This document shows, piece by piece, positions 22,755-32,231 of a stretch of 37,605 nucleotides of DNA (position 1 is the stretch's first letter; every line of letters starts with the position of its first letter). The translations under genes were made by a program, and so were the position numbers. The notes beneath the pieces are model-generated. The model was not told the DNA's origin, searched no databases, and saw nothing but the letters and a program-made list of their open reading frames with translations. Source of the DNA: a virus; UHGV virus genome UHGV-0180039, one strand, 5' to 3'.

Positions 22755-23191
22755 TCAGTTTTATCTCCCCATCTCGCTTTCCACTCCAGAGCCAGTCGCG
22801 CTTCGTCTGACCACTTAACGCCATGTTCTGTACCGAATGCCTGTATAAGCTCTAATAGCTCCGCAAATTCGCTTACACGCATCCTGCTGGTTGACTGACC
22901 TATTACCACAAAGCCATTCCCGGCAAGGTTAGGAACAACGTCTTGCTGCTTTAATGCTGCGGTAAACACACACTTCCAGCTTTCTGCATCCAGCCAGCGA
23001 CCATGCCATTCAACCTGACGAGAGACGTCACCAAGGCAAGCCCAAAGCTTTCGATTCTGGTCTAAGCTGCGGTTGCGTTCCTGAATGGTTACTACGATTG
23101 GTTTGGTTGGGTCTGGAAGGATTTTCTGGATAGCTTGAATGGCGTTCTGCTGATGGATGGGGCTTCTTAGTTCAAACGTTAGTTTCCTCAT
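22751..23191 (-). CDS. ninB: NinB recombination protein
   Basis: 146 aa, near-identical to lambda NinB from memory (...LPDPTKPIVVTIQERNRSLDQNRKLWACLGDVSRQVEWHGRWLDAESWKCVFTAALKQQDVVPNLAGNGFVVIGQSTSRM...). Confidence 0.9.
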   Translation of the reverse strand: MRKLTFELRSPIHQQNAIQAIQKILPDPTKPIVVTIQERNRSLDQNRKLWACLGDVSRQVEWHGRWLDAESWKCVFTAALKQQDVVPNLAGNGFVVIGQSTSRMRVSEFAELLELIQAFGTEHGVKWSDEARLALEWKARWGDKTE

Positions 23192-23408
23192 GGGATGAAC
23201 TCCAGTTTGTGATGTTAAATTCCCATTTAATTACCTTTGCATACCCAATTTTGAACCCATCAATACCTATCCACCGCTTGCCACTCCAATAAGCTGTGCC
23301 ACTTTGCTTGAAATGATGTGGATGCCTAGATTGAGTGGTCACAGTTACAGGTAAATATGGCTTCGGGTATTCCCCATTCCCTGGATAACCAGATTTAATT
23401 TTGCTCAT
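23172..23408 (-). CDS. Hypothetical 78-aa protein (nin region)
   Basis: ORF linked by overlaps to its neighbours; no family recognised. Confidence 0.4.
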   Translation of the reverse strand: MSKIKSGYPGNGEYPKPYLPVTVTTQSRHPHHFKQSGTAYWSGKRWIGIDGFKIGYAKVIKWEFNITNWSSSHEETNV

Positions 23409-23731
23409 TGATACCCTCTCTCACTTAATCGCCTCCACGCTTCGTTAAACTCTTCTCGAGTTGCGCCGGATTTTCTTTCTTCAAACATCATGCATTCGCT
23501 GATGTCTCCCCATGACTTTGGTCGCTTTTCAGCGAACAGATCATCCCATTCGAATACCCAGCGGCCTGATTTTCGGTAGTGGTAAATGGTCAGCCATGTT
23601 GTGCTGTTCGCTGGATACCCATAGAGAACTTCGACTTTTTGATCACGGTCTTTATGCTTTTTCAGCAGGATAAAGCCAGCAACCAGCGAAGCTCCGGCAA
23701 GAATGATGATTGGAATTTGCCAGTCAGCCAC
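23405..23731 (-). CDS. Hypothetical 108-aa protein with an N-terminal transmembrane helix (nin region)
   Basis: Hydrophobic IPIIILAGASLVAGFILL near the N-terminus; start codon is GTG; first gene after the tR2-like terminator. Confidence 0.45.
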   Translation of the reverse strand: MADWQIPIIILAGASLVAGFILLKKHKDRDQKVEVLYGYPANSTTWLTIYHYRKSGRWVFEWDDLFAEKRPKSWGDISECMMFEERKSGATREEFNEAWRRLSERGYQ

Positions 23732-23807: not shown

Positions 23808-25688
23808 TTAATACTCCGTCACGTTTTCCTGTCGCCACGCCTCGTCATATTCCGATTTCGGCATATTGGCGATGTAGCTATATGGCGATCCTGATTCAAG
23901 TTGCAGGAACTGGTGCGATTGCTCGTCAAGGAACAACGGGACACCACCTTCCCAACCTTCGCCGTTACGTTGTTTTTCAAGCATCAAAACAGATGCCGGA
24001 GATGCAAGTAGCTGTTCGTCCTTCTCTGACATCTTTTCACCACTCTGAACTCTCTGTAACGCTCTCTCGCGAGCCTTGTTACGCCAGATGATGAAAAGGT
24101 TGTCTGTCAGGTCTGTTATCGCTCCAGAGCCTTTTACGTCCATTTTCCCGGTTGGTTTTTCTTCGCTGTCTCCTTTTCGCGAGTGAGTAACGAGAATGAC
24201 GTGGGAGTTTGTTTTGTTTTTGAAGTCGCAAATCGAGTCAACAAACGCCTTCTGCCCGTTATAGTCATCGTCGCCTATGCCACATTTCATCAGGCTGTCG
24301 ATGATGAATAACTGGATCCCGTATCGGCGGCGAGCGTAGTCGAATATTTCGATCAGCCTGTCGGCTTTCGCCGTTCCGGTCAGGCCAAACACCCAAAGTC
24401 TTTCGTCATAAAATTTAAATGCAGAGTCAATTTCCAGCACTGGCGGCATCTTGCAGCACGTCGCCTGACGGGTAAGGCGCTTAAGGAGAATACCAGGCTT
24501 CAGCTCAAGTGACGCGATGCACGTCTTCACCCCCTGACGCATTGCCTCAAGTGCCATATGCCCGACAACCTCCGTTTTTCCGTGACCGTTCACACCATTG
24601 ACCAGCGTCAACTCGGCCTCACGGAACTGGAATTTATCTGCCAGAGATTCCCACGGTGGATTAAACAGATACTGCTGCTTGCCGTAGAAAGCGTTGATAG
24701 TGTCCTGGTAAAACTCTCGCGCGCTGTAGAGTTCTTCAGGATCGAAGTAGGATGCCGTGCCGATGTACTGCCAGATTTCATCCTCGGTAACACCGTTCAT
24801 CAGGCATTCGTTGATGTCTTTGTACGGCAGAGTAACAAGACGGCAACGATGTTCACCGAGTCGGCTTGCGATTTCCCTTGCGGCTTCACGACCAACATCA
24901 TCAACGTCCATCGAGATGAATATTTCCTCAAACCTGTCGAGGTTGTGATACTCAAACTCAATCCACTGTTGCTTAGCGCCTTTCCCGCCACCAAACGGCA
25001 CGGATAACGCCGAGATGCCGTATTGCGCATAGCTAATACAATCAATTTCGCCTTCGCAAAGTACAACCGCCCTCACGCCAGCGTCCAGAGCCTGCCATCC
25101 GAACAGACAAGGTTCGCAATCACCTTCTGCCATAATGACTTTCTTCCCGTCCGGGCGCTCAGTGCTGATTCGCTTGACCTGCAACAACTCACCATCGCGT
25201 TTGTACGGAATCACCAGAGCATCCAGTTCTCGCTCTCCATTCCACACCTTGCCGCTGACAACCTCGTAGCGCTTTACGATTTCTGGAGATATGCCACGCG
25301 ATTGCAGGTACTCAAGATGGGATTCTGTTCTGGTAACGTAGCGGGCGATTTTCTTGCGGTCAGGTCTGGAGAATTTCTTCTCACGTCTGGCATCGAAATG
25401 GTGATCGTCATCCTTGATACCGAGAAATGCTTTCGCTTCCTGCATAGCCTGATGCAGGTTAATTCCACGACATGCCATCCATAAATCAAGCATGTCACCG
25501 CCGTCTCCCTCAGCGAAATCAGCCCATTTTTTCTTGCCGCTAAGGTTGACCTTAAGGCTGTTTCCCTTGTCGCCGTTGACGTTACCGGCAACCCACTCAT
25601 GCCCCTCTTTCTTGCCGTTTGGCAACAGGTGCGGAGCCACCCTGTCAACCTGCGCCCAAAGCAGGTCGCTGAGTTCACTTGGCGTCAT
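23808..25688 (-). CDS. Bifunctional primase-helicase (Toprim-type primase domain plus DnaB/RecA-like helicase domain)
   Basis: 626 aa; Toprim-like VVLCEGEIDCISYAQ...FISMDVDDVG in the N-terminal half; Walker A GVNGHGKT and Walker B LFIIDSL in the C-terminal half. Confidence 0.8.
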   Translation of the reverse strand: MTPSELSDLLWAQVDRVAPHLLPNGKKEGHEWVAGNVNGDKGNSLKVNLSGKKKWADFAEGDGGDMLDLWMACRGINLHQAMQEAKAFLGIKDDDHHFDARREKKFSRPDRKKIARYVTRTESHLEYLQSRGISPEIVKRYEVVSGKVWNGERELDALVIPYKRDGELLQVKRISTERPDGKKVIMAEGDCEPCLFGWQALDAGVRAVVLCEGEIDCISYAQYGISALSVPFGGGKGAKQQWIEFEYHNLDRFEEIFISMDVDDVGREAAREIASRLGEHRCRLVTLPYKDINECLMNGVTEDEIWQYIGTASYFDPEELYSAREFYQDTINAFYGKQQYLFNPPWESLADKFQFREAELTLVNGVNGHGKTEVVGHMALEAMRQGVKTCIASLELKPGILLKRLTRQATCCKMPPVLEIDSAFKFYDERLWVFGLTGTAKADRLIEIFDYARRRYGIQLFIIDSLMKCGIGDDDYNGQKAFVDSICDFKNKTNSHVILVTHSRKGDSEEKPTGKMDVKGSGAITDLTDNLFIIWRNKARERALQRVQSGEKMSEKDEQLLASPASVLMLEKQRNGEGWEGGVPLFLDEQSHQFLQLESGSPYSYIANMPKSEYDEAWRQENVTEY

Positions 25689-25795
25689 GATTCCCTCAGA
25701 TTGAGATTTTTAAACCAGAAATCGACAAACGAAATACTTAACCAACCGTGGTTATAACCAGCGACCAGTAGCGATTTGATTTTTGATTTCATGGT

Positions 25796-26656
25796 TCACC
25801 TGTCGAAAAACACGTAGCCAGTTTTCGATACGGTGATTGCGGATGATGGTTTGGATTGTGGTTGAATAGTTTCTGGCTTCTCGTCGTTCCAGCGTTGACC
25901 GTTCAGGTAGCTCGATGGTAACAACCTGTCGAATCCGAACTGCTTACCATTCCTGCATGCGATGTCTTCTGCCAGCATCGTGGCAAACTCTCTTGCCGTA
26001 CCCCTGGTAGTTTTACGCCATTCCCTGAACTGTGTTCTGAATGCCGAAGCTGCGTTTTTCTTCCCGGCTTTCCGCATGCCTGCACACCAGAATATTTCCT
26101 CGAATGCCTTGTCGGTTTCTTCGTGACGGTCATGTGATTTTTCACACTCCGTCCGAACACTTTCGGACATAGTGTTTTTATTATTTCTTTTTTCTTTTGT
26201 AATAGTTTCTTTTGTGTGTCCCTGTTTTGGTGACAGCGCTGTCACCGTTTTGGTGACACTTTTTGTCACCAATGCAGTGACATTATCACCAGAGTAGTGA
26301 CACCCTTCTATTTGCCATTCCTCGATGTTCTTGTTAGGCCCGATTTGCTGGCCTTCGCGAAGGATAACCTTCATCGCGATAAGCTCATTCTTGGCCTTAT
26401 TTACCTTCTGTCTTGGCAGCCTGGTAATTTGAGCTAACTGACTATCAGAGATGCGATCCATCTTTTTACCGTAGCCGTATGTTTTACGGCATATGGCGTG
26501 GGCAACCTTGCTCTGATTTTTCGTTAAATCTGCGCCGATAAGCTCTTCATACAGGGCATTTGCAAGACGGGTATAACCATCTTCAACTTCTGCCACACGA
26601 CGCTCCACAGGCCGTTGTGAAGGCCTTAAATGTGTTACGGTTGCAAGATTACTCAT
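25796..26656 (-). CDS. O: Replication initiator, lambda O-like
   Basis: 286 aa; N-terminal region ([22 protein letters not shown]...[25 protein letters not shown]...GPNKNIEEW) resembles the lambda O DNA-binding domain; the origin repeats lie inside the gene. C-terminal domain not confidently assigned. Confidence 0.8.
26170..26305. repeat. Replication origin inside the O gene: four dyad-symmetric iterons plus an adjacent AT-rich region
   Basis: GGTGACAGCGCTGTCACC (perfect palindrome), GGTGACACTTTTTGTCACC, AGTGACATTATCACC, AGTGACACCC at about 26228-26303; AT-rich TTTTTATTATTTCTTTTTTCTTTTGTAATAGTTTCTTTTGTG at about 26174-26216. Confidence 0.65.
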
Positions 26657-26827
26657 GACCTTTCTCCTTCTGCATCAGCTTCACTTTTTCCAACTCAGCC
26701 CGGAATCGACCAGGCTGCTTGAAGCTGGACAGGAAGCGATCACGTAGTATGTGTTTGTGAATTTTGTCCTGGTAAGGACTGAGTTGTTTTGTCATAATGA
26801 CTCCTGTTGATAGATCCAGTAATGACC

Positions 26828-27121
26828 TCAGAACTCCATCTGGATTTGTTCAGAACGCTCGGTTGCCGCCGGGCGTTTTTTATTGGTGAGAATCGAAGCA
26901 ACTTGTCGTGCCAATCGAGCCATATCGTCGTCAACGACGCCCCATTCAAGAACAGCAAGCAGCATTGAGAACTTTGGAATCCAATCCCTCTTCCACCTGC
27001 TGATCTGCGACTTATCAACTCCCACAGCTTCCGCTGTCTTCTCAGTTCCAAGCATTGCGATTTTGTTAAGCAACGCACTCTCGATTCTTAGAGCCTCGTT
27101 GCGTTTGTTTGCACGAACCAT
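26828..27121 (-). CDS. cII: Transcriptional activator cII (lambda type)
   Basis: From the internal [100 protein letters not shown], near-identical to lambda cII. The 126-aa track ORF is an upstream extension across nutR. Confidence 0.9.
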
Positions 27122-27139
27122 ATGTAAGTATTTCCTTAA

Positions 27140-27173
27140 CAAATAAGAAGTTATGCGCATCAACTTATGCGCG
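27140..27173 (-). terminator. Possible tR1-like hairpin between nutR and cII
   Basis: Palindromic ATGCGCAT arms around a 6-nt loop, followed on the transcript by a U-rich stretch; weak. Confidence 0.3.
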
Positions 27174-27179
27174 TTGTAT

Positions 27180-27223
27180 TCCCGCATTTCTGCGGGAATG
27201 AGGACCATGACTGTTAAAGAGCA
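27180..27223 (-). promoter_or_regulatory. nutR: boxA (UGCUCUUUAACA) plus boxB hairpin (UCCCGCAGAAAUGCGGGA)
   Basis: boxA at 27223..27212 starts 6 nt after the cro stop; 14-nt spacer; 18-nt boxB at 27197..27180 with a 7-bp stem and GAAA loop. Confidence 0.6.
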
Positions 27224-27229
27224 ATTTGC

Positions 27230-27415
27230 TTATGCCGCTTTGCGGTAAGCGCTTTCTTGATACTTCAGGGCGCCAGCTGTAACGACTTCCAGTCGATAGG
27301 CGTCTTTCTCTGGGATGACTTCCTTCCACTGAGAGACTGCTGCGTCGCTAATGCCTAACGCTTTAGCTACAGCACGCTGGGTTCCGAAGTGGTCGATAAC
27401 ATCTTTCTTGTACAT
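27230..27415 (-). CDS. cro: Cro repressor (P22 type)
   Basis: 61 aa MYKKDVIDHFGTQRAVAKALGISDAAVSQWKEVIPEKDAYRLE.VTAGALKYQE.AYR.AA, near-identical to P22 Cro from memory. Confidence 0.95.
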   Translation of the reverse strand: MYKKDVIDHFGTQRAVAKALGISDAAVSQWKEVIPEKDAYRLEVVTAGALKYQESAYRKAA

Positions 27416-27495: not shown

Positions 27496-28146
27496 ATGAA
27501 AACTCAATTGATGGGAGAGCGCATTCGCGCTCGGAGAAAAGAACTCAAGATCAGGCAGGCCGCACTTGGAAAGATGGTCGGCGTGTCTAATGTTGCCATA
27601 TCTCAGTGGGAACGCTCTGAGACAGAGCCAAATGGAGAGAATCTTCTCGCCCTGGCTAATGCGTTGAAGTGTTCCCCTGACTATCTGATGAAAGGAGAGG
27701 AAAGTCTTTCAAACATTGCCTATCACAGTAGGCATGATCCAAGAGGGTCATACCCTCTGATTAGCTGGGTGAGCGCAGGATGCTGGATGGAAGCTGTAGA
27801 ACCATATCATAAGCGTGCAATAGATAACTGGTACGATACAACCGTAGACTGTTCAGAAGATTCGTTTTGGTTGGACGTGAAGGGAGACTCAATGACGGCT
27901 CCGGCCGGTCTCAGTATCCCTGAAGGAATGATAATACTCGTCGATCCTGAAGTAGAGCCGCGTAACGGGAAACTGGTAGTTGCAAAGCTCGAAGGAGAAA
28001 ACGAGGCAACTTTCAAGAAGTTAGTTATTGATGCAGGCAGGAAGTTTCTAAAACCACTTAACCCACAATATCCGATGATCGAGATCAACGGAAACTGCAA
28101 AATCATCGGCGTAGTTGTCGATGCAAAACTAGCAAACCTTCCATAA
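27496..28146 (+). CDS. c2: Immunity repressor C2 (P22 type; LexA/S24-like C-terminal domain)
   Basis: 216 aa MKTQLMGERIRARRKELKIRQAALGKMVGVSNVAISQWERSETEPNGENLLAL..., near-identical to P22 c2 from memory; C-terminal Ser/Lys autocleavage-type domain (DVKGDSM ... VAKL). Confidence 0.95.
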   Translation: MKTQLMGERIRARRKELKIRQAALGKMVGVSNVAISQWERSETEPNGENLLALANALKCSPDYLMKGEESLSNIAYHSRHDPRGSYPLISWVSAGCWMEAVEPYHKRAIDNWYDTTVDCSEDSFWLDVKGDSMTAPAGLSIPEGMIILVDPEVEPRNGKLVVAKLEGENEATFKKLVIDAGRKFLKPLNPQYPMIEINGNCKIIGVVVDAKLANLP

Positions 28147-30053: not shown

Positions 30054-30146
30054 GCGCGGCTTTACCGCATACCAATAATGCTTCACGAGAGGTGTTTATT
30101 CATGAGCGTAAACGCTGATTAATGAACGCAGTTGATAGGATATAAA

Positions 30147-30659
30147 ATGGCATTTATAAAGATTCTTGAATTAATTTCCCTAAGTGAGATTAATAATGTT
30201 GTCAAATATAACCCTATTTCTGGTGAGTTCACATGGCTAAAATCTTATGGAGCAAGGAAGATAGGTGGAACTGCCGGAACAATAACAACAAGCGGCTACT
30301 TAAGGATTTTCATTAACGGAAGACACTATGCTGCACATAGACTTGCATGGATTATCACTTTCGGTGTTGAGCCTGAAGGTATTATCGACCATATAAATGG
30401 CATAAAGACAGATAACAGAATTTGCAATCTGAGGCTTGCAACTTACTCACAGAATTCAATGAATAGTAAAATAAACACCCTCAACAAATCAGGTTGCAAA
30501 GGAGTCACATGGAAGAAGGAAAGTAGAAAGTGGGCTGCCTATGGGAAATTAAACGGGAAGAAAAAACATCTAGGGTACTTTAATGAATTAGAAGATGCCA
30601 AAAAAGCTTACTGCGACTTTGCCAGAAAGCATCACGGCGAATTCTACAGGAGCAAATAA
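30147..30659 (+). CDS. HNH homing endonuclease (HNH_3-type motif plus AP2-like DNA-binding domain)
   Basis: Motifs HRLAWIITFG...IDHINGIKTDNRICNLRL and AP2-like GVTWKKESRKWAAYGKLNGKKKHLGYFNELEDAKKAY. Track start 30132 is TTG; ATG at 30147 with an AGGA SD is more likely. Confidence 0.8.
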   Translation: MAFIKILELISLSEINNVVKYNPISGEFTWLKSYGARKIGGTAGTITTSGYLRIFINGRHYAAHRLAWIITFGVEPEGIIDHINGIKTDNRICNLRLATYSQNSMNSKINTLNKSGCKGVTWKKESRKWAAYGKLNGKKKHLGYFNELEDAKKAYCDFARKHHGEFYRSK

Positions 30660-31011: not shown

Positions 31012-31323
31012 ATGATGATTCTGACTCTGAATGATAAGCGTGAAATATCGCAAATAATCGCAAGTTTTACCGATGATGATTACGAACGAATCAACAGTGA
31101 AGTTGATCGTCTCTGCAAACGTTGCGACCCAATAAGCGAAATGCTTCGCTCATATAAACCAGATGAACACACTAAGGACGCTATCGACTGGCTGGAAGAT
31201 GATGACTGTAACTATCAGGAAAAAGCCGCTGAATGGTTCTGGGATGCAATAACCGAAAGAGTTAAGGCTGAATATGCCTTCGCAATATTCAAACGCAGAC
31301 ACATTTATGGAGAAGCAGCATGA
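31012..31323 (+). CDS. Hypothetical 103-aa protein
   Basis: ATG with AGGAG SD; its stop overlaps the recT start. Confidence 0.45.
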   Translation: MMILTLNDKREISQIIASFTDDDYERINSEVDRLCKRCDPISEMLRSYKPDEHTKDAIDWLEDDDCNYQEKAAEWFWDAITERVKAEYAFAIFKRRHIYGEAA

Positions 31324-32231
31324 GCAATATCGTTGAATTCGTTAAACAGCAAGAGCAGTTATTCTGCGGAGCATTGACTGAACAGACGGTGACATGGGCT
31401 AAGGAAAGCCAGTTTGCAATTCAGTATTTCCAGAAAAACGATTACCTGGCTAAAACAGCACTGGCAAATCCAACCAGCGCACAGAACGCCATCATCAACG
31501 TTGCGGCGATCGGCATCACCTTAAACCCTGCAAGCAAACTGGCTTATCTAGTTCCGCGCGATGGCATGGTTTGCCTTGATATCAGCTATATGGGATTGCT
31601 TCATATTGCAATGGAGTCTGGTGTTATCTCATGGGGTCAGGCAAAACTTGTTCATGCTAACGATACCTATGAGTCAAACGGGCTTGATAAAGCACCAACC
31701 CATAAATACAACGCCTTCGGTGATCGTGGTGATATCGTTGGCGTTTACTGCACAGTTAAGACGCCGGCAGGTGATTATCTAACGGAAGAGATGAGTCTGG
31801 CTGAAATTGAGGCTGTAAGGAAAACAAGCAAGGCGGCATTCAGCGATAAAGGACCATGGGTAAATCACTGGAATGAGATGGCGCGAAAGACGGTCGTAAA
31901 GCGTGCAAGCAAGTATTGGCCTAAGGCATCACGTCTTGATAGTGCTATTCACGTACTAAACGAAGAAGAAGGTGTGTGGACTGAACCAGTTATGCCGCAC
32001 AAATCAGAGGAAGATATCCGCGAAGATGAACGGAAACGCCAGCAGGAAATAATGGATAAAGCACAACTTCTTTGCGATGAAATGGCTCAGGCAGAAAACA
32101 TGGACGATTTGAAGCGATATTTTGCAGAAGCATATCGCCTGACATCTGGAATGAAATTGCAGCAGAACGTACAAGCCATTTACGCAGAATGCAAAGCGAA
32201 ACTGGAGGTTGCCAGTGAGCAAACTATATGA
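31320..32231 (+). CDS. recT: RecT-family single-strand annealing recombinase
   Basis: 303 aa; conserved GPWVNHWNEMARKTVVKR block matches the RecT signature (GPWVTHWEEMAKKT in Rac RecT, recalled). Confidence 0.85.
   Translation: MSNIVEFVKQQEQLFCGALTEQTVTWAKESQFAIQYFQKNDYLAKTALANPTSAQNAIINVAAIGITLNPASKLAYLVPRDGMVCLDISYMGLLHIAMESGVISWGQAKLVHANDTYESNGLDKAPTHKYNAFGDRGDIVGVYCTVKTPAGDYLTEEMSLAEIEAVRKTSKAAFSDKGPWVNHWNEMARKTVVKRASKYWPKASRLDSAIHVLNEEEGVWTEPVMPHKSEEDIREDERKRQQEIMDKAQLLCDEMAQAENMDDLKRYFAEAYRLTSGMKLQQNVQAIYAECKAKLEVASEQTI

Follow-up and report, generated by a model that had tools for sequence, protein, structure and literature searches.

The window analysed here, the whole 37,605-nucleotide stretch of UHGV virus genome UHGV-0180039, carries on its minus strand two large open reading frames (ORFs), which encode a 286-residue replication initiator (25796-26656) and a predicted bifunctional primase-helicase of the T7 gp4/Twinkle type with 626 residues (23808-25688). 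A preliminary description of this DNA had placed the two genes in this span (23808-26656). It had overlooked that the 107 bp between them are not empty: they are occupied by a third, conserved ORF of 35 codons (25685-25792, minus strand), whose product could take part in the hand-off from initiator to helicase. The three genes follow cII in the order found in phage ES18: first an O-like initiator gene with the ori inside it, then a 35-codon gene, then the gene of a gp4-like primase-helicase. At the level of sequence the locus is confirmed as a prophage replication module in which the origin-binding protein is lambda O-like, the primase-helicase is of the T7 gene 4 type and a helicase loader is not encoded.

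The assignment of the 626-residue protein is based on Pfam, phmmer, PHROG and Foldseek searches. Residues 209-296 match Toprim_2 (E 4e-12), matches to AAA_25 and DnaB_C on residues 355-594 are weak, and the first 200 residues matched no Pfam family. Searched against the PDB with phmmer, the protein finds T7 gp4 (E 2.8e-23, residues 192-539) and also Twinkle, and it belongs with PHROG 239, "DNA primase/helicase" (E 9e-171). These matches bear out the earlier view that the gene next to the initiator encodes a fusion of Toprim and a DnaB-like helicase. Foldseek matched an AlphaFold2 model of the protein (pLDDT 85.9) best to T7 gp4 (5ikn, E 1e-26, and 1q57), Twinkle and Aquifex DnaG; its alignments with Twinkle (7t8c, 621 columns) and with the ZBD and RPD of Aquifex DnaG (2au3, 391 columns) reach past the helicase and TOPRIM parts. 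The family is large, with 2355 homologues at E ≤ 1e-10 and a 90%-identity cluster of 5632 member sequences.

Three domains can be distinguished, all encoded on the minus strand. The N-terminal domain (residues 1-95; 25404-25688), a small β-sheet plus helices in the AlphaFold2 model, holds the position of the primase zinc ribbon but lacks its cysteines: T7 residues C17, C20, C36 and C39 align with A34, V37, G64 and L67, and cysteine is found at these columns in none of 47 homologues spanning 42-99% identity. The primase RNA-polymerase domain, which includes the TOPRIM fold (residues ∼110-310; 24759-25361), has E212, D261, D263 and D291 at the positions of T7 E157, D207, D209 and D237, and these residues are invariant in all 47 sequences. 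The same holds for the SF4 helicase domain, of the RecA fold and DnaB/gp4 type (residues ∼340-600; 23889-24671), where K371, E395, D464 and H502 correspond to T7 K318, E343, D424 and H465. Alignment identified this domain, and so did Foldseek, which matched it to the helicase domain of gp4 as well as to Twinkle and DnaB. Relatives carry an intein inserted in the P-loop (PMC3430580), a location that is in our judgement typical of essential active sites. T7 gp4 recognizes its template with the help of four zinc-ligand cysteines, and since these are missing here, the predicted primase activity is less certain than the predicted helicase activity. K519 had been considered as a replacement for the T7 arginine finger and was dropped after proper alignment placed it opposite T7 R487; the region of T7 R522 cannot be aligned owing to a family-specific insertion around residues 540-565. 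R574, in the invariant motif KQR, might act as the arginine finger, a guess made from the motif.

The initiator comprises an O-like winged-helix N-terminal domain, a middle domain that we call type A and a C-terminal tail. The predicted Phage_rep_O DNA-binding domain (PF04492; residues 20-114, 26315-26599, minus strand) is matched with E 1.3e-37 and 128.6 bits against a cut-off of 28.7, and PHROGs returns "replication initiation O-like". The whole protein is 98-99% identical to the initiators of Sf101 and mEp043, and its N-terminal 154 residues share 48% identity with lambda O and 46% with P22 gp18, so that the lambda O-like character attributed to this domain in the preliminary description is well founded. 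In the alignment with lambda O no similarity extends past residue ∼157, and the P-binding C-terminal domain of lambda O is absent; neither lambda nor P22 appeared among the matches to a query made from the initiator C-terminus. A domain search of this C-terminus, which had been suggested as a check, matched no Pfam family but did match PHROG 33384 and 270, which correspond to the type-A middle domain (residues 181-261, beginning FEEIFW; 25874-26116, minus strand; predicted helical). The AlphaFold2 model of the C-terminal fragment contains three helices at low confidence (pLDDT 56) and was left out of the fold search.

The type-A domain was considered as the partner-specific part of the initiator and rejected. 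It is not specific to the primase-helicase, since initiators of Vibrio and Pseudomonas phages also have it although the genes beside them encode other proteins, among them, in one Pseudomonas phage, a DnaC/IstB-like loader. A candidate P-like protein beside the initiator of Vibrio PVA1 reached only E 0.12 and was not counted. Primase-helicases at 66-77% identity are also found behind initiators with unrelated middle domains.

The presumed origin lies within the initiator coding sequence and appears to be laid out in the lambda style, as iterons, A-rich tract and palindrome. Four 19-bp iterons of the form TGTCACC-N5-GGTGACA (26217-26302) are the only matches to this pattern, all of them inside the initiator gene, against 0.32 expected, and none of 100 shuffles reached four. 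They adjoin an A-rich, A+T-rich tract (26168-26216), the presumed unwinding element, which is followed by a 14-bp inverted repeat (26144-26175) that we take to hold the position of the lambda ori palindrome. The ES18 record has a rep_origin at the corresponding site, labelled "similar to lambda ori". Natural initiator hybrids also have their crossover point in the A-rich tract (in the protein, ..TKExITKEKR|..), and the breakpoint with Stx2 phages falls near position 26180 of the window.

A Pfam search of 30 early-right and early-left ORFs of the window (E ≤ 0.001-0.01) found no Phage_lambda_P (PF06992), no IstB/DnaC (PF01695) and no second DnaB-type protein, in agreement with the earlier statement that a lambda P or DnaC-type loader is lacking. 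The sole ORF between initiator and primase-helicase is, at only 35 codons, too small to be a loader of the P or DnaC type.

The pairing of an O-like initiator with a primase-helicase is already known and common; annotations of it in phages, ES18 among them, go back to 2005, and it is described in PMC2629481, PMC3430580 and PMC10307801. It is textbook-adjacent and very abundant, with 414 phage records matching the module at the nucleotide level. ES18 genes 59-60-61 are the same three genes in the same order. In the record gp59, whose gene contains a lambda-like ori, is labelled "similar to lambda gpO", gp61 is labelled "putative primase/helicase; similar to phage T7 gene 4", and gp60 is given as unknown. 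The same module is found in Sf101, mEp043, epsilon34, SEN22, phi24B and Min27 (there "O2/P2") and the Anderson typing phages STMP5 and 17. Nucleotide identity of the window module is 98.8% to Sf101, 98.6% to mEp043 and about 88% to ES18, the last value spanning the primase-helicase and the initiator C-terminus. Nothing essential distinguishes ES18 from the window, although the N-terminal halves of their initiators are only 48% identical. The Stx2 phages also differ in the N-terminal half of the initiator, and phi24B and Min27 have an HTH_36-type initiator N-terminus and an intein in the helicase (PMC3430580).

The module can be compared with the replication systems of lambda, P22 and T7. The O-like N-terminal domain (48%), an origin within the initiator gene with four iterons and then an A+T-rich tract, and the location after cII are shared with lambda, whereas the C-terminal 130 residues of the initiator are unrelated to lambda O, P is absent and the downstream gene encodes a helicase with a primase. 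A lambdoid precedent without a loader exists in P22 genes 18 and 12 (Wickner 1984, as cited in PMC8022706), which encode an O-like initiator, 46% identical in its N-terminal part, and a replicative helicase of the phage's own (PMC8022706). According to the same citation, P22 gp12 is a DnaB-type helicase without primase that works with host DnaG; the window helicase differs in being of the gp4/Twinkle type with a fused TOPRIM primase, and the initiator C-termini are unrelated. The 626-residue protein agrees with T7 gene 4 and Twinkle in domain order and in fold, and like them it retains the acidic residues of TOPRIM together with Walker A, the catalytic Glu, Walker B and the His sensor of the helicase. 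Unlike T7 gp4 it has no Cys4 zinc ribbon and carries the insertion described above, and its partner is an iteron-binding initiator at a theta-type origin rather than a phage RNA polymerase and a phage DNA polymerase.

Natural hybrids cover all four combinations of initiator N- and C-terminus, and the C-terminus always predicts the partner gene while the N-terminus does not. In the window, a window-type N-terminus with the type-A C-terminus and tail precedes a primase-helicase. In PhiR12_2 an N-terminus 100% identical to that of the window over residues 1-157 is joined to the lambda O C-terminus, and the next gene encodes a P protein 97% identical to lambda P. Lambda itself combines its own N- and C-termini with P, and in P0013 a lambda-type N-terminus with the type-A C-terminus and tail is followed by a 626-residue Toprim/AAA_25 protein. 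The HTH_36-type N-termini of phi24B and Min27 are attached to the same C-terminus, again upstream of a primase-helicase. A lambda-type C-terminus beside a primase-helicase, or the tail beside P, was not seen among the loci compared. A scan with the initiator C-terminus recovered 80 viral contigs in which the primase-helicase is next in every contig long enough to tell, but these hold only near-identical modules (at least 97% identity) and are uninformative on diversity.

Within the C-terminus, the 13-residue tail (25799-25837, minus strand) stands out by conservation and tree congruence as a candidate docking peptide for the primase-helicase. The last ∼12 residues follow the primase-helicase phylogeny in 27 enterobacterial loci. 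The same tail ends initiators that carry any of three unrelated middle domains (types A, B or C) behind N-termini of several types; all of these initiators are encoded upstream of primase-helicases at 66% identity or more. In the tail, nucleotide diversity at the three codon positions is 0.30/0.27/0.60, compared with 0.63/0.46/0.66 for the linker before it, and by this measure the tail is under purifying selection. More distant clades have conserved tails of their own, xEVF(V/I)xxDA(L/M) at ∼60% helicase identity and (L/I)xxG(V/A)(I/L)-COOH at 40-46%. Spearman correlations with primase-helicase identity were positive for every part of the initiator (N-terminus 0.73, middle 0.59, tail 0.79) and did not discriminate between them; we therefore relied on the categorical swaps, tree congruence and codon-position diversity. 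This strong comparative evidence supports a coupling between initiator and helicase, with the tail as the best candidate for the docking motif. The suggestion in the preliminary description that the initiator recruits its own primase-helicase instead of loading host DnaB is thus partly supported, by the co-segregation of the C-terminus with the partner gene, by the agreement of the tail with the helicase phylogeny and by the invariant catalytic residues; the idea itself is not new.

Part of the co-inheritance of tail and helicase could reflect linkage, since the tail is only ∼110 bp from the primase-helicase gene. At its strongest this reading would have no specific contact between initiator and helicase, the helicase loading itself on any bubble made by the initiator and rightward transcription, and the C-terminus and tail travelling with the helicase gene through adjacency and through recombination favouring the conserved A-rich ori sequence. 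Besides the short distance, it would account for the location of every hybrid junction in the same conserved A-rich stretch and for the correlation of even N-terminal identity with helicase identity. To our knowledge T7 gp4 needs no specific recruiter, which also counts in its favour. However, selection on the tail acts at the amino-acid level, its synonymous sites being close to saturation like the adjoining linker, and the tail persists in initiators whose adjacent upstream middle domain has given way to the unrelated types B or C. As the mismatched pairings of C-terminus and partner were also not seen among the loci compared, we consider linkage by itself an unlikely explanation.

The micro-gene (MKSKIKSLLVAGYNHGWLSISFVDFWFKNLNLRES) begins 4 nt downstream of the stop codon of the initiator gene, and its own stop codon overlaps the primase-helicase start (ATGA); judging by the sequence it is translationally coupled to the primase-helicase. 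It is the counterpart of ES18 gp60 and of PHROG 21848, in both of which the function is annotated as unknown, and represents a small conserved unknown in a well-studied region. Its 27 unique homologues are all exactly 35 codons long, with codon-position diversity of 0.39/0.24/0.54. It is present in 28 of 33 enterobacterial-clade loci, and where an HNH endonuclease gene has been inserted before the helicase it stays beside the initiator. Conserved length and sequence with a coding signature, translational coupling, wide presence and attachment to the initiator could all be explained if its product were an adaptor or mini-loader joining initiator and primase-helicase, the tail then binding the microprotein and not the helicase. 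Against this, the gene is missing from the other five loci (L100, L102, L104, L106 and L115), which keep both tail and helicase, and from the whole clade at 40-46% helicase identity, where the initiator abuts the helicase; nor does it belong to a family of known function. We regard such an adaptor as improbable.

That the initiator still recruits host DnaB, directly or through DnaC like many plasmid initiators, with the 626-residue protein confined largely to priming or to unwinding in late or rolling-circle replication, is very improbable: the zinc-less N-terminal domain and unusual architecture do leave room for another role of that protein, and the type-A domain does occur in initiators working with a DnaC-like loader, but the helicase motifs are invariant, the inteins of relatives target the P-loop (PMC3430580), the initiator C-terminus swaps together with the partner gene and no loader was found in the 30 early ORFs.

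The reading that we prefer is direct recruitment of the phage primase-helicase by the initiator. By homology and layout, the O-like N-terminal domain would, like lambda O, bind the four iterons in its own gene and distort the adjacent A-rich tract. Recruitment of the primase-helicase would then fall to the initiator C-terminus, most likely to its last ∼12 residues, as the natural domain swaps and the congruence of tail and helicase suggest. Since the catalytic residues are conserved and no loader gene was found among the early ORFs, the primase-helicase may, like T7 gp4, load itself on the opened strand with no help from a P- or DnaC-type protein, and would both unwind and prime. On this model a host polymerase would be needed, DnaB and DnaC would not, and DnaG probably would not, so we infer independence from host DnaB and DnaG. 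The 35-residue product, coupled in translation to the primase-helicase, may assist but is not universal. This chain of events is, in our assessment, the best explanation of the locus and a likely one, and it would make the module one of the lambdoid "initiator plus own helicase" type, as in ES18 and Sf101.

A more specific version can be put forward only tentatively. Here the last ∼12 residues would be a portable, clade-specific docking peptide that alone specifies a gp4-like helicase regardless of the DNA-binding and middle domains, and the 35-residue microprotein of the ES18 gp60 family would be a hand-off cofactor, the two together forming a minimal loader-free route from origin to replisome. 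If true, this route would free very common enterobacterial prophages from host DnaB, DnaC and DnaG. The natural domain swaps and conserved tail lead to a simple and testable model in which an iteron-binding initiator hands the origin to a self-loading helicase. Shiga-toxin phages such as phi24B and Min27 carry modules of this kind, and if the model is true their replication would be independent of the host DnaB/DnaC route studied for lambda.

The large protein was located at 23808-25688 on the minus strand (626 aa), exactly where the preliminary description had placed it, and it is the fusion of Toprim and helicase domains claimed there: Pfam detected Toprim_2, with weak AAA_25 and DnaB_C matches, and both phmmer and Foldseek matched T7 gp4. 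Against PDB sequences, phmmer aligned T7 gp4 with residues 192-539 (E = 2.8e-23) and also matched Twinkle, and the match to PHROG 239 'DNA primase/helicase' had an E-value of 9e-171. For an AlphaFold2 model (47 homologues as input, pLDDT 85.9), the best Foldseek matches were the T7 gp4 structures 5ikn and 1q57 (E ~1e-26 over about 500 aligned columns); full-length Twinkle and Aquifex DnaG (zinc-binding and RNA-polymerase domains) came next. T7 gp4 was then added to the family alignment (47 sequences, 42-99% identity). The TOPRIM residues E212/D261/D263/D291 (T7 E157/D207/D209/D237) and the helicase residues K371/E395/D464/H502 (T7 K318/E343/D424/H465) are invariant in 47/47 sequences. Because none of the 47 has a cysteine at A34, V37, G64 or L67, the positions aligned to the four zinc cysteines of T7, the N-terminal domain is, as judged from this alignment, a zinc-less version, and for that reason primase activity would be less certain than helicase activity. 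The C-terminus (23808-23850, minus strand) forms a conserved acidic and aromatic tail, ...EYDEAWRQENVTEY, in which W618, N622 and T624 are nearly invariant. Similar tails, acidic and with an aromatic end, dock T7 gp4 and SSB onto polymerase components; the putative partner here is possibly a host Pol III subunit.

The initiator gene (25796-26656, minus strand, 286 aa) likewise lies precisely as first described, and the N-terminus of its product is indeed lambda O-like (Phage_rep_O, residues 20-114, E = 1.3e-37), residues 1-154 being 48% identical to lambda O and 46% to P22 gp18. Four palindromic 19-bp iterons (TGTCACC-N5-GGTGACA) are found inside the gene at 26217-26302. They are the only matches to this pattern in the whole window, with 0.32 expected by chance, and are followed in the direction of transcription by a ~49-bp A-rich tract and a 14-bp inverted repeat. 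The equivalent site in the ES18 record is a rep_origin 'similar to lambda ori'. A Pfam search of the middle domain (type A below) found no family. The predicted model of the C-terminal fragment, of low confidence (pLDDT 56), has three helices and then an irregular stretch that includes the extreme C-terminal tail, the last ~12 residues (25799-25837).

A Pfam search of 30 ORFs from both early operons bore out the reported lack of a P- or DnaC-type loader, with no lambda P, no DnaC/IstB and no further DnaB-type protein detected. The 107-bp spacer between initiator and primase-helicase is not empty, however: it holds a 35-codon ORF (25685-25792, minus strand) whose start lies 4 nt past the stop codon of the initiator gene. 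Its TGA overlaps the ATG of the primase-helicase gene (ATGA), so that the two are coupled in translation. All 27 distinct homologues have exactly 35 codons (consensus MKs.iK.lLiaGYNhGlls..FV..wF.k..LR..), and their nucleotide diversity at codon positions 1/2/3 (0.39/0.24/0.54) shows a coding signature. This micro-ORF is present in 28/33 enterobacterial-clade loci and belongs to the ES18 gp60 family, PHROG 21848, which has no assigned function.

The window belongs to a lambdoid phage or prophage that is P22-like (Lederbergvirus-type). Its minus strand carries the early-right operon, in the order cro (27230-27415), cII (26828-27208), a 48-aa DUF2740 ORF (26649-26795) that shares 8 nt with the start of the initiator gene, initiator, large Toprim protein, two small ORFs, NinB, MT-A70 methylase and other nin genes, and Q; the cI repressor gene (27496-28146) is divergent from it. 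The DUF2740 family is labelled 'tail protein' in RefSeq and PHROGs, a label that is implausible here because the gene lies between cII and the initiator. The two small ORFs (23172-23731, minus strand) encode proteins of 108 aa (hydrophobic N-terminal segment, PHROG 5903) and 78 aa (PHROG 29435), neither with a Pfam family; this slot differs among relatives, ES18 having gp62 and NinA there. In the early-left operon, an HNH_3 and AP2-domain homing-endonuclease-like gene (30132-30659, plus strand) lies upstream of a RecT-family recombinase gene (31320-32231) and a Gp157-like gene.

Natural hybrids link the initiator C-terminus to the protein encoded next to it. In Stx2 phages, whose initiators have an HTH_36-type N-terminus, the part held in common with the window is confined to the primase-helicase and initiator C-terminus and extends to about 26180, just past the A-rich tract. 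In the window itself a window-type N-terminus is joined to a type A/tail C-terminus and followed by the micro-ORF and primase-helicase, whereas in PhiR12_2 (locus L169, 3501-5104) the same N-terminus (100% identical, residues 1-157) is joined to a lambda O-type C-terminus and followed by a P protein 97% identical to lambda P. Lambda combines a lambda-type N-terminus and lambda O-type C-terminus with P, and the hybrids P0001, P0006 and P0013 combine a lambda-type N-terminus and type A/tail C-terminus with a 626-aa Toprim/AAA_25 protein. All hybrid junctions lie directly after TKExITKEKR, within the A-rich part of ori, and therefore the N-terminus follows the iterons while the C-terminus follows the partner. 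Locus L170 is also among these reciprocal hybrids. In 80 viral contigs found via the initiator C-terminus, the primase-helicase is next in all that are long enough to show it.

A survey from the helicase side used a primase-helicase alignment as query and one genome per species (78 loci, 99% to 22% identity). Nearly all have an ORF of 240-350 aa immediately upstream, and those checked (L096, L110, L121 and L132) match PHROG 'replication initiation' families. Enterobacterial-clade initiators are three-part mosaics: an N-terminus (Phage_rep_O, HTH_36/DnaD_N or neither), one of three unrelated middle domains (A, FEEIFW...RWNDE; B, KYAFEGNVIRLN...LSAKLKYQNDR; C, ...DWGRALNNWLRNAK), and a tail common to all three, (I/V)(T/Q)(V/I)S(K/E)(T/S)G(Y/L)VF(F/I/L)(D/N)(R). 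The tail variants fit the primase-helicase tree cleanly: L105 (type B) and L110 (type C), whose helicases are sisters, both have SGYVFIN in the tail, and a further sister pair, L094 with middle type A and L096 with type B, has near-identical tails. The helicase clade at about 60% identity has its own conserved initiator tail, xEVF(V/I)xxDA(L/M), and that at 40-46% has (L/I)xxG(V/A)(I/L)-COOH, with translational coupling. Primase-helicases of this last group are widespread outside Enterobacterales (L121-L142, Gamma- and Alphaproteobacteria, including Legionella-type); there, initiator-like proteins of other PHROG families, ending in ...G(V/A)(I/L), precede the primase-helicase, with stop and start overlapping or abutting.

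The type-A middle domain was rejected as the partner-specific part, since it also occurs in initiators without a primase-helicase neighbour, in Vibrio phages next to non-helicase ORFs and in Pseudomonas phage Skulduggery next to an IstB/DnaC-like loader. Linkage contributes to the match between tail and helicase, since the helicase gene lies only about 110 bp away from the tail; simple rank correlations did not separate the three initiator parts. Within the tail, codon positions 1 and 2 are constrained (nucleotide diversity 0.30 and 0.27) but position 3 (0.60) is nearly saturated, as is the linker just before the tail (0.63/0.46/0.66), which argues that the tail is under selection and not merely recently co-inherited.

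The module has been described before and is nothing unusual among lambdoid phages. Over 3.1 kb its nucleotide identity is 98.8% with Sf101, 98.6% with mEp043 and 91.6% with SEN22; ES18 is about 88% identical over the primase-helicase and initiator C-terminus, and the module, in whole or in part, is matched in 414 phage records. The ES18 GenBank record describes gp59 as 'similar to phage lambda gpO' and gp61 as 'putative primase/helicase; similar to phage T7 gene 4'. In epsilon34 the region was termed ES18-like, with an origin-binding protein and putative helicase (PMC2629481), and the phi24B 'P' was described as a TOPRIM primase and GP4d helicase with an intein, the pair being named O2/P2 (PMC3430580). 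Such a pairing has likewise been described for Anderson typing phages, STMP5/17 among them (PMC10307801). In the literature surveyed we found no biochemistry or host-dependence tests on the module. Close relatives (L008, L011, L002) carry inteins or other insertions within the primase-helicase. In L008 (5507-8413) the Walker A loop is interrupted (GHGK|C...HN|T) by an intein of 342 aa that has LAGLIDADG-like motifs, and in L011 an insertion at residue 263 adjoins the TOPRIM DxD motif; the Min27 (L002, 3666-6248) and phi24B 'P' proteins have 860-968 aa, the phi24B intein being already published (PMC3430580). Some otherwise near-identical modules have a 164-aa HNH/NUMOD4 homing-endonuclease gene between micro-ORF and primase-helicase (L019, 5507-6001; L170, 750-1247; also L022, L051, L054, L072 and L077), with the micro-ORF still adjoining the initiator.

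The preliminary description was correct in its observations. Its interpretation, that the initiator recruits its own primase-helicase instead of loading host DnaB, is a reasonable one, for which the comparative data now give better support. By homology and layout, the initiator, like lambda O, would bind the iterons and open the A-rich tract. Its tail, perhaps with assistance from the 35-aa product, would then bring in the phage primase-helicase, as the swaps, tree congruence and selection suggest. With its catalytic residues invariant and a loader gene absent, the latter would self-load like T7 gp4, then unwind and prime for the host polymerase, bypassing DnaB and DnaC and probably DnaG too. 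We consider this overall model, an initiator with its own self-loading primase-helicase, probable from the comparative sequence evidence; that the tail itself makes the contact we would put at about an even chance. New here, though modest, are the motif in the tail, the natural swap in all four combinations and the conserved micro-gene, details that make the hand-off open to experiment.
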